Positions 53,840-57,994 of a DNA stretch of 64,000 bases are shown here, in pieces. The translations under genes and the position numbers were made by a program. The notes under the pieces are model-generated. The model did not search any database. It saw only the letters and a program-made list of their open reading frames with translations, and was not told the origin of the DNA. Positions within the stretch are counted from its first letter, which is position 1. Every line of letters starts with the position of its first letter. Source of the DNA: Corallococcus exiguus (GTDB lineage: Bacteria; Myxococcota; Myxococcia; Myxococcales; Myxococcaceae); the NCBI RefSeq assembly GCF_051058965.1, contig NZ_CP183924.1. One strand, written 5' to 3'.

Positions 53840-56800
53840 ATGAGCGGCACGGCCCCCAAGAGCTGGGATCTCTTCCTCAGCTACAACAGCAGAGACCATG
53901 CGCTCGCGACGAAGCTGGCCTACCGCCTGCGCAGTGAGGGGCTCCAGCCGTGGTTCGACAAGTGGGAGCTGATTCCAGGGGAACCGTGGCTGCCCGCTGT
54001 AGAGCATGGAATCGCAGAGTGCCCATGCATGGTGGTGTGCATCGGAGCCTCTGGCTGGGGGCCGGTCCAGGACGCCGAAGCCCAGAACGCACGGATTCGC
54101 GCCATGCTCGACAGCAAACGACGGGTCATCCCAGTGTTCATGGCCGGAGTCGAACAGGTCGAGCTTCCAGGGCTGCTGAAGAACCTGGCGTATGTTGACC
54201 TCCGAGGGAACTCCGACGAGGAGTTTCGACGATTGACCCTGGCGATTGGAGGCCTCACCGCCAAACCGAGACCCGCGACCGTCGGCGATTGCCCCTACCG
54301 GGGGCTGCAACCCTTCGAAAGCCGGCACGCCGGGATGTTCTTCGGCAGGCAGGAAGATGTCTCGGGCCTGCTCGACCGGCTAGGTCGCGCACAGCGCCTG
54401 CTTCTCATCGTGGGCCCCTCTGGGAGCGGTAAGTCGTCACTGGTCATGGCGGGGCTGCTTCCGGCGGTCGCTTCCGGGCAGCTCCATGGCTCGTACGACT
54501 GGCGTGTTGTCAGCGTGCGCCCGGGGGTACGGCCCTGCCATGAACTCGCGGTGGCCCTGGGCAGCCTTGATGAAACGCCGCCCGCGGACGGGGTGGCTCG
54601 CCTCCAGGCTCGCCGCAAGTGTTTGCGTGAGGACCCCGAGTCACTCAGCGACCAGGTGGACCTCCTGCTTCAACAGCTGCCGCGCGCTTGTCGGCTCCTG
54701 TTGCTTGTCGATCAATTGGAAGAGGTGTTTTCGCAATGTCAGGACAGCGCAGACCGAGAAGCCTTCCTGGCCAACCTCGTACATGCGGGGACCATCGCAG
54801 GAGGTCGCGTGCATGTCGTGGCGACACTTCGCTCGGACTTCCTCGGTCGCCTTCAGGAGTGGCCCGGAATCGCAGGGCACCTGAACGGCTCCACATATCT
54901 CATGCGCTCGATGGCCGAGGCCGAGCTGCATGAAACCGTGGCACAGCCAGCGCAGCTCTCTGAACTGCGCTTCGAGCCGGGGCTCATCGAGGAGCTCCTC
55001 ACCGCGGTGCGCGCCCAGCCAGGTGACCTCCCCCTGCTCCAGTTCACGCTGCTCCAGCTTTGGAAGGAGCGCCAGGGAGACACGCTCACCTGGGAGGCCT
55101 ATGAGCGCATCCGTCGGCTGAAAGGGGCCATCACGCGCAGCGCGGAGCAGTGCCTCTTGACGCTCACGGAGCCCCAGCAGTCCTTGGTCCCACGGGTGTT
55201 CCGTCGACTGGTTATCGTCGGCGACGAAACCGGCGACACGCGCCGCCGCGCTTCTCGTGAAGAACTCGAAGCCCTTGGAGCAGAGGTCCCGATAATCCTC
55301 GAGCGCTTCATCTCCGAGCGCCTGCTGGTGGCCAGTGACGGTCTGGTGGAGTTGGCCCATGAAGCCCTGGTGCGCGGCTGGGAGCGACTCCGCGAATGGC
55401 TGGAAGAGGAGCGAGAGCTCCTGATGCTGCGCCAGGAGGTCGAACGTGCTTCGGAGGCATGGCGGCGCTCCGGTCAGTCCACCGACGAACTCTGGAGGGG
55501 CAGCCGTATGTCGCGGACTGGGGAGCTGAAAGACGCCCTGGCTCCCCTTCTCACCGAAAGGGAGCGGGCCTTTCTGGACGAGTCGAGAGAAACGCTGCGC
55601 CGCGACACCGAGCGTGCCGATCTGGCCGTGGCGAGGATGCTCGCGATGCGCTCGGCACAGGTGCGTCCACATCGCCCCATGCTGTCCGTGCTGCTGGCCC
55701 GCGAGGCGGTCAGGCGCTACTCCCACCCCGAGACGCGCTCGGAGCTGTACGCCGCACTGCTGGACAGCCCACTGCGCGAGGTCATCCAACTGGCGGGAGG
55801 AGCAAGAACCGGACAGCCATTGTTCCGTCCGAGCCCTGATGGGGCGACGTTCTTCGTGTGCTCAAGCGGTATGGCGGCACTTGTGTCGCGGGCTGGGAAG
55901 CTCATCACGGAGCTGCCCGTGAAGAGCCTCGACGTGAAGTTCGTGAGATTCAGTCCGGACAGAGAGCGGCTCGCAGTCATTCCCACCCAGCGCGTCGAGG
56001 GAATCGCGGCGTGGCTCTTCAGCGCTCGCGGAGAACTCATCTCCACACTCCGGGATGGCGGTTCTCAAGAGCCAACCGACTGTGCAAGCTTCAGTCCGGA
56101 TGGGCAGCATCTTCTGACCGCGCGCAGCGATGGCGCCGTGCGACTGTGGAATGTCGCCCTTGGCCATGCTGCGTATCTGCCCACCGGTGTAGGCTTTTCC
56201 TACGGACACTTCAGTCCAGACGGAACGAGGCTGCTTACGCTGTCCTCCGAAAGTCGTACAGCGAACCTATGGAGCACCGAAGGTGAGCGGCTCCACGAAC
56301 TGAAGGGGCACGAGCACCGAATCATCCATGGAAGGTGGAGCCCGGACAGCACCCATGTCCTCACGAGCGCAAGGGATGGTACCGCACGCATCTGGGACCG
56401 GGATGGCAAATCCATTGCGACACTGACCGGACACGCTGCTCCGCTCACCTATGGCTCTTTCGACCCTTCAGGCAGCCGCGTCCTTACGGTCAGTGAGGAC
56501 TCCACCGCGCGGCTCTGGGATTTGACGGGCAAGAGCCTCCTCATTCTTCGTGATGCGACCCGGGCGCTTGAGTTCTGTTCCTGGAGCCCCCAGGGCCGGC
56601 ACTTCCTGACCTGGAACCAGCATCAACTGCGCATCTACCGTGACAGTGGCCGGCTCCTCACCACGCTTCAAGAACACGAGGTGCCCGGGCGCGACCATGC
56701 AACGTGGAGTTCGGACGGAGCGTCGCTGATGACGTCGCACGCCGGCAGACATGACAAGGAGGGGCCTGAGATCCAGGTCTGGGCCGTGGAACCCGCGCCG

Positions 56801-57994
56801 ACTCGTGTCTTGCAAGGACACCGCGGAGACATCCAGCACGTCGTCCCCCAACCGGCGGGAGAACGGATACTCACGGTGTCGCTTGACAGCGTCTGTCTAT
56901 GGAACTCACAGGGGACCCTGCTGCGCCGCATTGAACGCGAGGACCCACCGACTGACCGGATCCCCCTCTTCGCCGGCGCCTGCTGGGACCCTCAGGGTCG
57001 GAAGTTCCTGACGTATGGATACAACAATCTCGTGAGGGGTTGGGACGCTGATGGCCAACCGCTGCTGAGGCTGGAGGGACAGGAGCAACATCAGCTCGGA
57101 ACGCATCGCGCATGTTTCAGCGCCGACAGCTCACGGATACTGACGGTGTCGAACGATGGCAGCGCGCGACTGTGGAGCATGGAGGGTCGCGAACTGGTTC
57201 GAATGGGGGACCACCATTGGGGGGTTGACTCCGGAGAGGTCTCGCCTACGGGGCATCACGCGCTCACGGTGAGCGCGCATAAAGAGTTGTATGTCTGGGA
57301 TCTCCGTCCCCCATTTATCAATACCTCCGAGGCAGCATCCCCCTTCGGAGCGTACTCGTACGGCTCCGGCGAATGCGTACCAGAGAAGAACGGCTCGCTC
57401 GAAGCCGTGCCCACCTATCCCGCAGCTCGGCTCTTGCACCGCAGCCATCGACGTCTCTCCGCATTCGCGGATATCGATGACGCACACTTCGTGCCAGGGA
57501 GCTCACGGATCGTGCTGTTGAACATGGGCATTCATTGCCTGGACTTGGAAACTGGCGAGAGCCGCGCGCTGGCGCCCGGACACCGTGCCTCGTGCGTCGC
57601 CGTAAACCCGGATGGGACCCGCATCCTGTTGGGCTACGAGCAAGGACATGCGGAGGTGAGGGACTTCGAGGGCAACGTGCTCTGGCAACTTCGAGGACAC
57701 GAGGCCGCCCTGGGCAAGGTGGGCTGGACACCGGATGGAGCGCGTGCATTTACCGCTGCCAAGGACGGAACGGTCTGCCTCTGGGAACCGGATGGCTCGC
57801 TCCTGGCCACCCTTCGAGGTCACATCGATCCGCTCACGGACGTCACGTTCGCTGGTCTTGGAGAGCACCTGCTCACCACAGCCGGCCCTGTGGCGTGGAT
57901 CTGGCCAGCAACCCGTGAAGGCTTGCAGGCCCTTGCGGAGCAGCGCCCCCTACGGGACTTCACGCCCCAGGAACGCCAACGCTACCTTGAGTAG
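53840..57994 (+). CDS. TIR-STAND(NACHT-like NTPase)-WD40 repeat protein (1384 aa)
   Basis: TIR reads WDLFLSYNSRDHALATKLAYRLRSEGLQPWFDKWELIPGEPW. The NTPase reads CPYRGLQPFESRHAGMFFGRQEDV...LLLIVGPSGSGKSSLV (Walker A) ...LLLLVDQLEE (Walker B). More than 12 WD40-like blades fill the C-terminal approximately 750 aa (...SPDGQHLLTARSDGAVRLWN, ...SPDSTHVLTSARDGTARIWD, ...). Confidence 0.8.
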   Translation: MSGTAPKSWDLFLSYNSRDHALATKLAYRLRSEGLQPWFDKWELIPGEPWLPAVEHGIAECPCMVVCIGASGWGPVQDAEAQNARIRAMLDSKRRVIPVFMAGVEQVELPGLLKNLAYVDLRGNSDEEFRRLTLAIGGLTAKPRPATVGDCPYRGLQPFESRHAGMFFGRQEDVSGLLDRLGRAQRLLLIVGPSGSGKSSLVMAGLLPAVASGQLHGSYDWRVVSVRPGVRPCHELAVALGSLDETPPADGVARLQARRKCLREDPESLSDQVDLLLQQLPRACRLLLLVDQLEEVFSQCQDSADREAFLANLVHAGTIAGGRVHVVATLRSDFLGRLQEWPGIAGHLNGSTYLMRSMAEAELHETVAQPAQLSELRFEPGLIEELLTAVRAQPGDLPLLQFTLLQLWKERQGDTLTWEAYERIRRLKGAITRSAEQCLLTLTEPQQSLVPRVFRRLVIVGDETGDTRRRASREELEALGAEVPIILERFISERLLVASDGLVELAHEALVRGWERLREWLEEERELLMLRQEVERASEAWRRSGQSTDELWRGSRMSRTGELKDALAPLLTERERAFLDESRETLRRDTERADLAVARMLAMRSAQVRPHRPMLSVLLAREAVRRYSHPETRSELYAALLDSPLREVIQLAGGARTGQPLFRPSPDGATFFVCSSGMAALVSRAGKLITELPVKSLDVKFVRFSPDRERLAVIPTQRVEGIAAWLFSARGELISTLRDGGSQEPTDCASFSPDGQHLLTARSDGAVRLWNVALGHAAYLPTGVGFSYGHFSPDGTRLLTLSSESRTANLWSTEGERLHELKGHEHRIIHGRWSPDSTHVLTSARDGTARIWDRDGKSIATLTGHAAPLTYGSFDPSGSRVLTVSEDSTARLWDLTGKSLLILRDATRALEFCSWSPQGRHFLTWNQHQLRIYRDSGRLLTTLQEHEVPGRDHATWSSDGASLMTSHAGRHDKEGPEIQVWAVEPAPTRVLQGHRGDIQHVVPQPAGERILTVSLDSVCLWNSQGTLLRRIEREDPPTDRIPLFAGACWDPQGRKFLTYGYNNLVRGWDADGQPLLRLEGQEQHQLGTHRACFSADSSRILTVSNDGSARLWSMEGRELVRMGDHHWGVDSGEVSPTGHHALTVSAHKELYVWDLRPPFINTSEAASPFGAYSYGSGECVPEKNGSLEAVPTYPAARLLHRSHRRLSAFADIDDAHFVPGSSRIVLLNMGIHCLDLETGESRALAPGHRASCVAVNPDGTRILLGYEQGHAEVRDFEGNVLWQLRGHEAALGKVGWTPDGARAFTAAKDGTVCLWEPDGSLLATLRGHIDPLTDVTFAGLGEHLLTTAGPVAWIWPATREGLQALAEQRPLRDFTPQERQRYLE

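Follow-up and report, generated by a model that had tools for sequence, protein, structure and literature searches.

The DNA analysed here, called the window below, is a stretch of 64,000 nucleotides from the myxobacterium Corallococcus exiguus (contig NZ_CP183924.1 of assembly GCF_051058965.1). Our subject is an open reading frame (ORF) at positions 53840-57994, the target, which encodes a protein of 1384 amino acids (aa) with an N-terminal TIR domain, a central P-loop nucleoside triphosphatase (NTPase) of the STAND class and a long C-terminal array of WD40 repeats (Table 1). Both the frame and this order of domains had been proposed in a first-pass annotation made from the letters alone. The ORF list and the translation contain the frame as described, and the domain order was borne out by Pfam, by AlphaFold models and by fold matches.

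The ORF begins with ATG, preceded at a distance of 7 nt by a Shine-Dalgarno-like GGAGA. An exact-sequence look-up returned no database record for the window protein, in place of which we used its orthologue from Corallococcus exercitus, a protein of identical length (1384 aa) and 90% identity. Between the two genes dN/dS was 0.25 at a dS of 0.19 (Nei-Gojobori); by module it was 0.18 in the TIR domain, 0.21 in the NTPase, 0.41 in the linker and 0.26 in the WD40 repeats. Because of this equally long, 90% identical orthologue and the dN/dS of 0.25, we take the target, on sequence grounds, to be a genuine gene under purifying selection and not a chance ORF of GC-rich DNA. NCBIfam offered no meaningful family for it (a TolB propeller model reached 30 bits against a cut-off of 343). 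A scan around the gene returned zero promoter-like sites, which is uninformative in a GC-rich genome, and the terminator-like sites in the scan were no commoner than in shuffled sequence and are equally uninformative at this GC content.

The N-terminus folds as a TIR domain in a confident AlphaFold model, which superposes on the TIR domains of SARM1 and MyD88. A profile of the family's TIR domains, compared with the PDB, matched 7uxr (E 1.8e-11), the TIR-STING structure 6wt6 (E 7e-11), AbTIR (7uwg and 8g83, E 1e-10 to 3e-10), Cat1 (E 3e-9) and Roq1 (E 1.7e-7). The W-x-x-x-E motif of the family aligns with DWTNYELD of AbTIR, and Glu80 of the target falls on the glutamate of WTNYELD, which we take to be the catalytic residue of AbTIR. 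In a small subclade, made up of the window gene and five close relatives, the usual position of the tryptophan is occupied by Val76 and a tryptophan stands at position 73 instead. Because of this displacement we call the predicted NADase site of the TIR domain only probably active.

The centre of the protein carries the two nucleotide-binding motifs that had been picked out by eye, GPSGSGKSSLV at aa 192-202 and DQLEE at aa 291-295, and the modelled domain contains both Walker A and Walker B. Its confident AlphaFold model shows a P-loop core followed by a helical domain and a winged helix, a fold like that of known STAND proteins, and superposes on NLRP3, NRC2, MalT and Apaf-1. A fold search was needed to find these structural relatives, because a sequence search of the PDB with aa 1-660 returned only TIR domains and no STAND protein. 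The NTPase had been labelled NACHT-like, and this label has to be replaced. The NACHT profile PF05729 scored 23.7 bits (E 4.9e-5), below its cut-off of 26.7, whereas the nSTAND1 profile PF20703 matched over positions 1-378 of 379 with 381-385 bits against a cut-off of 27.1 (E 1e-114 to 9e-114). With 23.7 sub-threshold bits against 385, NACHT was ruled out, and by profile comparison the NTPase is a member of nSTAND1, a STAND clade separate from NACHT.

Conservation within this module was counted in an alignment of 64 homologues, and the Walker A pattern in 120 listed homologues. Invariant residues comprise G192, S194, G195, G197, K198, S199 and S200 of Walker A, D291, Q292, E294 and E295 of Walker B, R331, D333 and F334 at the end of a later strand, and L397 and L399, next to which G395 and P398 are conserved in at least 90% of the sequences. 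The pattern G[PAS]SG[SC]GKS occurs in 118 of the 120 listed homologues; of the remaining two, one has GxSGAGKS and the other gave an unrelated, earlier P-loop match. Several of these residues invite comparison with NB-ARC proteins. R331-S-D-F may correspond to sensor 1, given its likeness to the NB-ARC TTR motif; the GxLPL motif formed by G395, L397, P398 and L399 resembles the NB-ARC GLPL; and H507 takes a position resembling that of the MHD histidine, of which it would be a functional analogue.

The C-terminal half matched many WD40 and beta-propeller families of Pfam between ~aa 720 and 1330. The AlphaFold model of aa 621-1384 (pLDDT 87.8) contains 65 beta strands, and the number of blades, ~16, is an estimate from its strand list. 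When the propeller region was compared with the PDB by Foldseek, the repetitive Nostoc propeller 2ymu was the best match (E 8e-44), and double-propeller proteins of the small-subunit processome and Apaf-1 (3sfz, E 5e-30) were also found. The canonical Pfam WD40 profile recognises only 4-6 of the repeats. We therefore quantified how alike successive repeats are by lag-autocorrelation (best 168-residue window at a lag of 41) in 121 proteins. Identity was 23% in the target and 22-29% across the target and its five closest relatives; these six values are among the seven lowest of all, and the four lowest all belong to the subclade. The remaining 115 proteins have a median of 62% and reach 98%. Such values suggest that the repeats of the target subclade are old and fixed, unlike the near-identical, reshufflable repeats of most relatives, and diversification by repeat shuffling does not apply to the target, as its repeats are just 23% alike.

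One could also take the gene for a relic, decaying or inactive, in which the worn repeats have lost their sensing function. In favour of this, the target has the lowest internal repeat identity of the 121 homologues, the conserved tryptophan of its TIR site is displaced, and a neighbouring TIR-WD40 gene (T1232, below) is mostly deleted in C. exercitus. We nevertheless regard this explanation as highly improbable: the 1384-aa frame is intact in two species, dN/dS is low both overall and in the repeats, the NTPase motifs and Glu80 are all in place, and the propeller region is modelled with confidence.

Table 1. Features of the target gene and of the region around it (window positions)
Feature	Position	Strand	Basis
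Whole gene: TIR - nSTAND1 NTPase - helical linker - tandem WD40 propellers, 1384 aa	53840..57994	+	ORF list, translation, Pfam
TIR domain, aa 12-132	53873..54235	+	Pfam TIR_2, E 1.7e-22
Glu80 codon, predicted catalytic glutamate of TIR NADase site	54077..54079	+	Glu in 61 of 64 aligned homologues
nSTAND1 NTPase module (P-loop domain, helical domain, winged helix), aa 152-548	54293..55483	+	Pfam PF20703
Walker A, GPSGSGKSS, aa 192-200	54413..54439	+	64-homologue alignment
Walker B, LLLVDQLEE, aa 287-295	54698..54724	+	Alignment; model strand 286-290
Sensor-1-like motif R331-S-D-F, aa 331-334	54830..54841	+	End of model strand 324-331
His507-Glu508 of winged-helix AHEAL motif	55358..55363	+	Invariant in 64 homologues; right after beta-hairpin 496-505
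Helical linker or arm between NTPase and propellers, aa 549-644	55484..55771	+	Model 1 helices 515-543, 573-608, 613-626, 630-641
WD40-type beta-propeller region, ~16 four-stranded blades, aa ~645-1356	55772..57907	+	AlphaFold model, Foldseek
Disordered insert in second half of propeller region, aa ~1166-1192	57335..57415	+	pLDDT <50 at model residues 546-567
tRNA-SeC, left boundary of variable region	51315..51413	+	ARAGORN
T760, upstream neighbour, 49 nt before the target	51508..53790	+	Pfam TIR_2 aa 431-555, E 2.4e-9; PADLOC spbK, E 1.7e-28
T1232, TIR + hydrophobic segment + WD40-like repeats	58264-61962	-	TIR_2 aa 108-196 (CKELEV)
T138, ThsB-type TIR	61959-62375	-	ThsB_TIR
T500, DNPH1-fold + TPR-S, ThsI-like	62388-63890	-	Pfam, PDB matches

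The nSTAND1 clade was named by Kaur, Iyer, Burroughs and Aravind (eLife 2021, PMC8195603), who counted it among the central NTPases of predicted counter-invader systems and listed TIR among the effectors. Searching the NTPase module against 1.84 billion cluster representatives, we obtained 49,026 matches at E<=1e-3 and 19,224 at E<=1e-30. Full-length relatives at ~30% identity come from myxobacteria, Chloroflexi, Planctomycetes (Gimesia), Verrucomicrobia, actinobacteria and cyanobacteria. Among the relatives the N-terminal domain is exchanged for kinase, adenylate cyclase, SARP or wHTH domains, and TIR shares an ORF with the NTPase in only 11 of 80 metagenomic nSTAND1 loci. A 2026 survey (PMC13581612) distinguishes 589 STAND clades, nSTAND included, and notes WD40 sensors; it places TEP1 with the non-immune STANDs and reports that the experimentally tested families use TPR-like sensors. 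An experiment on any nSTAND1 protein was not found in the literature. The target is a further member of this large, named family, and as such will not surprise a specialist.

At the tRNA-SeC, the GC content at third codon positions (GC3) changes from 0.93-0.94 in the two preceding genes to 0.71-0.74 in the four large genes that follow, the target itself having 0.73. All five complete genes between this tRNA and the end of the window (51315-64000) encode TIR or TIR-fold proteins, and of a sixth TIR-type gene only the 3' end lies inside. In T760, ~420 N-terminal and ~200 C-terminal residues match no family; its start may lie ~32 codons further in, the annotated C. exercitus start corresponding to about codon 33 here. 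T1232 shows no P-loop or NTPase. Its TIR domain is followed by a hydrophobic segment (aa ~247-267) that is probably membrane-spanning, by an Ala/Glu-rich, coiled-coil-like stretch and by a long WD40-like region, and its first ~100 residues may be untranslated. T500, T138 and T1232 are closely packed on the minus strand, with 12 nt between T500 and T138 and an overlap of 4 nt between T1232 and the T138 stop. The T500 start is most likely the methionine of MNNSLCF, near 63749, in view of the 453-aa gene of C. exercitus.

In C. exercitus the same tRNA-SeC is followed by the same region at 90-92% DNA identity, the orthologous proteins being 81% (T760), 90% (target) and 95% (T500) identical. An extra ThsB gene of 136 aa is present there and ~3.1 kb of T1232 are deleted. 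Further along, ThsB (128 aa), TIR_2-Y4lF and CAP12-PCTIR_TIR genes follow, up to the point where the core genes set in again. In all, the C. exercitus region holds nine TIR or TIR-fold genes, including the DNPH1-fold ThsI-like one; no integrase was found in it. The target and the flanking methyltransferase have similar dS values (0.19 and 0.22), from which we conclude that the region predates the split from the C. exercitus lineage; the best matches of the methyltransferase, of the target and of the MVP gene discussed below are all in Corallococcus. C. caeni has the same core gene order and tRNA-SeC, followed by GerE, PhyH, several hypothetical genes and a 2694-aa RHS toxin. Because this toxin cluster occupies the same position, we regard the tRNA-SeC site as a variable locus for conflict genes.

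A 47-nt direct repeat (77% identical) was observed at 58028-58074 and 63911-63957. On the minus strand both copies encode a ThsB-type C-terminus ending in LIDFVRGW or ELIDTVRGW before the stop. The true 3' end of the gene that leaves the window is formed by the second copy. The first, lying between the target and T1232, is a scar of 8 codons and suggests that a past duplication or recombination introduced the T1232-T138-T500 block.

T138 and T500, a pair kept in C. exercitus, recall a known type of system. For the N-terminal domain of T500 the sole PDB matches were DNPH1/Rcl N-glycosidases, which are weak (E 0.03) and in which the YELG motif is aligned (NVFYELG in T500). The C-terminal module is TPR-S/MAP3K_TRAF_bd (Pfam E 8.7e-45; ASK1 5ulm, E 6e-4), a module shared with human ASK1. 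In type VIII Thoeris, as described by a 2025 preprint, a TIR protein responds to infection by making canonical cyclic ADP-ribose (cADPR) and is paired with an effector, ThsI, composed of a "CMP hydrolase" domain and a TPR domain that the Aravind group had earlier predicted for TIR signalling. A ThsB-type TIR beside a DNPH1-fold/TPR-S effector fits this system, the likeness being drawn from the description and not from published ThsI sequences.

With such an effector only 4.4 kb away, on the opposite strand, the TIR domain of the target might serve as a signal generator, its cADPR-type messenger activating a separate protein, of which T500 would be the candidate, and the target being one of several TIR sensors. 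Several observations are in keeping with this: the TIR or TIR-fold domains in all five complete genes, the resemblance of T138 and T500 to a system in which a ThsB TIR makes cADPR for ThsI, and the presence of AbTIR, a producer of a cADPR isomer, among the top structural relatives of the TIR profile. Some relatives also have TIR neighbours. A 31% paralogue in C. interemptor (L034, 3304-12293) has a 674-aa TIR gene divergently upstream, next to an 870-aa TIR-TPR gene, and a Gimesia homologue (L035, Gimesia/TARA, 8001-20311) lies near a DUF4062-AAA_16-TPR STAND gene, a 367-aa TIR gene, an integrase and a weak SLATT match.

Other relatives speak against a messenger passed to a separate effector. 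The orthologues in Archangium (57%) and Stigmatella (53%) have wholly different neighbours, with no TIR or MVP gene within 10 kb and no TPR-S or SLATT neighbour, and the Archangium gene lies ~7 kb from HamA and DEAD-helicase genes, which we read as a Hachiman system. No TIR, TPR-S, DUF4062-STAND, integrase or SLATT neighbour was found for a further homologue, L036. Beyond generic TIR similarity, relatives of T760, T1232, T138 and T500 were not found beside any of these five homologues. Across the 80 metagenomic nSTAND1 loci a separate TIR ORF occurred in 3 (two of them resembling split N-termini) and a TPR-S ORF in 1, counts obtained with home-made profiles of limited sensitivity for divergent TIRs and on contigs many of which are short. 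Finally, the T500 operon is read in the opposite direction to the target, and the content of the region differs between the two Corallococcus genomes. We consider signalling from the target to T500 unlikely.

The same set of genes allows a more ambitious reading, to which we give still less credence and which we regard as rather unlikely. The whole region might be one integrated TIR network, in which the target, the membrane-anchored TIR-WD40 protein, the SpbK-like protein and the small ThsB-type sensors would each sense a cue of their own and signal through a cADPR-type messenger to a single ThsI-like effector. If true, it would be a bacterial analogue of the small-molecule signalling by which plant TIR-NLRs reach a shared helper.

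The nearest candidate for a partner is T760, which adjoins the target orthologue in C. exercitus as well. The 49-nt gap between T760 and the target holds no terminator-like site, and the two genes are possibly co-transcribed. A conserved partner gene was rejected, as the more distant loci examined share no neighbours with the target beyond generic TIR similarity. Since its distant orthologues stand alone, we read the target as a single-protein system; most likely the protein is sensor and effector in itself, and the clustering of TIR genes around it is local.

A vault shell gene ~20 kb away had also been pointed out in the first-pass annotation, along with a loose similarity of the target to the vault component TEP1. 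The vault gene is genuine: an MVP homologue of 758 aa at 30833-33109 on the minus strand, with Vault repeats and an MVP shoulder domain (E 1e-44). MVP homologues of bacteria have been described before, from three orders (bioRxiv 10.1101/872010). The target could be imagined as a TEP1 counterpart that works with this MVP, encoded 20.7 kb away, because target and TEP1 are both STAND NTPases with WD40 repeats and TEP1 is reported to have a TIR-like NADase domain directly before its NACHT module. This domain, TeTIR, is described for TEP1, NWD1 and NWD2 in a preprint of September 2026 (bioRxiv 10.64898/2026.09.21.753143) as an extended TIR-like domain of 200-350 residues with an RWG loop, which always stands directly before NACHT, with WD40 or TPR repeats to follow.

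The genomic data, however, separate the two genes. Between them lie the tRNA-SeC boundary and at least 12 genes, mostly for housekeeping or signalling, among them those for valyl-tRNA synthetase, quinolinate phosphoribosyltransferase, response regulators, a histidine kinase, kinases and GroEL, and GC3 is 0.92 in MVP versus 0.73 in the target. MVP belongs to the core genome, with 93-98% identity among a dozen species of Corallococcus and 84-88% in Archangiaceae, whereas the target is patchy and has one close orthologue only. In C. caeni the gene order next to MVP is unchanged, but the TIR region is missing and the RHS cluster stands in its place. A tblastn search with the target found no match in 489 kb around 26 MVP genes, and no TIR-nSTAND1 gene lies within 10 kb in these 26 loci; near the MVP gene of the window there is no TEP1-, vPARP- or TROVE-like gene. 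Bacterial MVP is reported from three orders, against more than 19,000 cluster representatives of nSTAND1 in many phyla. The closeness of target and MVP is a coincidence of gene order, as the annotation had already thought probable.

As for TEP1 itself, the similarity of architecture stands and is closer than had been supposed, given the TeTIR preprint, but it does not extend to the domains. Pfam found neither TROVE nor VWA in the target, the TIR domain is canonical, NACHT is below threshold, and the profile Beta-prop_TEP1_2nd, with 80-84 bits, stayed below its cut-off of 89 and did not outscore the generic propeller families. The three prokaryotic TeTIR members tested in the same preprint come from Arthrobacter, Bacillus cereus and Methanobacterium. 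Judged by these profiles, the likeness between target and TEP1 is one of domain architecture only. A bacterial vault with a TEP1-like partner was rejected on the MVP linkage data and the absent TEP1 features; the proposal is close to refuted, and a tempting idea about bacterial vaults is thereby removed.

A few observations on the vault side of the window are recorded here in their own right. The MVP gene is flanked by genes for quinolinate phosphoribosyltransferase (33813-34697) and an HmuY-like protein (29713-30747). The T500 N-terminal query weakly matched the edges of MVP loci (E 1e-4 to 1e-5), perhaps, as a guess, through similarity to flavodoxin-like receiver domains. The valyl-tRNA synthetase (34701-38195, minus strand) has a C-terminal tail of ~115 residues that matches the histone H1-like HC2 (aa 1048-1160, E 1e-10), and the same tail is annotated on its C. 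caeni orthologue. Also on the minus strand are a LysM protein (25295-27013) with a VgrG3-like C-terminal domain (E 4e-53) and a small EncFtn-like/rubrerythrin-like protein (41899-42336); an encapsulin shell gene was not noticed among the ORFs scanned.

Taken together, the target has three recognisable folds, intact catalytic and nucleotide-binding motifs and a history of purifying selection, lacks a conserved partner in the loci examined and lies in a variable region of immune-type genes. The effector-switch-sensor reading of the first-pass annotation is upheld by the domain order and by the fold similarities. Reasoning from the analogy of Apaf-1, plant TIR-NLRs and bacterial Avs proteins, we think with moderate confidence that the target both senses and acts on its own, as an NLR-like protein of the nSTAND1 clade which cleaves NAD+ upon activation. 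At rest, the protein would be a nucleotide-bound monomer that its C-terminal propellers keep shut. The WD40 propellers would bind a ligand (most likely a protein from an invading phage or from another foreign element), whereupon the NTPase would exchange or bind ATP through K198, D291/E294/E295, R331 and H507 and then oligomerise. The oligomer would gather the N-terminal TIR domains and so complete the NAD+-cleaving site around Glu80, and consumption of NAD+ would lead to growth arrest or cell death before the invader spreads. No partner gene would be required.

Several points weigh against this account. The WD40 repeats are the most degenerate of the 121 homologues and give no evidence of diversifying selection (omega 0.26), which is unusual for a sensor engaged in an arms race. 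With the tryptophan that usually stands four residues before the catalytic glutamate displaced in the target subclade, NADase competence is not certain. PADLOC v2 gave only weak TIR, P-loop or repeat matches to the target (E 1e-6 or worse) and no Avs model, and because these matches are weak and at domain level the target falls outside every catalogued defence system. In the literature we found neither a tested nSTAND1-WD40 protein nor a trigger for any nSTAND1 protein or any bacterial STAND that senses through WD40 repeats. Moreover, regulated cell death has a part in myxobacterial development too, so the trigger might come from something other than a phage.

The last point can be taken further. 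The same switch might have a non-phage role in a social bacterium, such as discrimination of kin from non-self, a response to toxins of competitors or prey, or programmed cell death during development. The family is over-represented in bacteria that aggregate or are multicellular (myxobacteria, cyanobacteria, Chloroflexi and planctomycetes; PMC7159879, PMC8195603), the C. caeni tRNA-SeC site holds an RHS polymorphic toxin, an inter-bacterial weapon, and degenerate, slowly evolving repeats would suit a fixed and perhaps endogenous ligand; fungal WD40 NLRs, moreover, function in allorecognition (PMC12881547). Against such a role, the region consists of immune-type TIR genes, including SpbK-like and Thoeris-like ones known from anti-phage defence. 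We hold a non-phage role to be improbable and retain the self-contained, NAD+-cleaving sensor of foreign elements as the preferred explanation.

The gene combines TIR, STAND and WD40 in one intact frame, in a social bacterium that can be cultured. This design links bacterial immunity to plant TIR-NLRs and Apaf-1 and, according to the TeTIR preprint, to TEP1. What makes the gene interesting is its nSTAND1/WD40 sensor class, together with its unusually degenerate repeats and the density of TIR genes around it. The setting is the most useful lead: as the window holds at least five further genes for TIR or TIR-fold proteins, one can ask whether NLR-type and Thoeris-type TIR systems interact, and the differing gene content of the region in two Corallococcus genomes provides natural genetic contrasts.

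Among known systems, the closest is the nSTAND1 family (PF20703) itself, with which the target shares a full-length NTPase match and the succession of a variable N-terminal effector, the NTPase and C-terminal repeats; within it, the small myxobacterial subclade of the target differs in its degenerate repeats (22-29% versus a median of 62%) and in the shifted tryptophan of its TIR domain. HET-E/NWD-type WD40 NLRs of fungi and bacteria, and the Nostoc protein 2ymu, likewise combine STAND with WD40, but the HET-E/NWD-type proteins have highly conserved internal repeats, in contrast to the target. The Avs/AVAST and bNACHT proteins follow the same logic of effector, NTPase and sensor in a single protein, and some Avs proteins have NAD+-depleting TIR effectors. 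The characterised Avs proteins, however, use another NTPase clade and TPR-like helical sensors, whereas the target uses nSTAND1 with a WD40 propeller and has no PADLOC Avs match.

The TEP1/NWD family also places a TIR-type NADase fold before a STAND NTPase and WD40 repeats, but there the modules are TeTIR and NACHT (in TEP1 also TROVE and VWA), while the target has a canonical TIR_2 domain of 130 aa, nSTAND1 and no MVP link. Plant TIR-NLRs such as Roq1 and RPP1 combine NB-ARC with LRR, and Apaf-1 combines CARD with NB-ARC, where the target has nSTAND1 with WD40; its identity to these proteins is only 12-16%.

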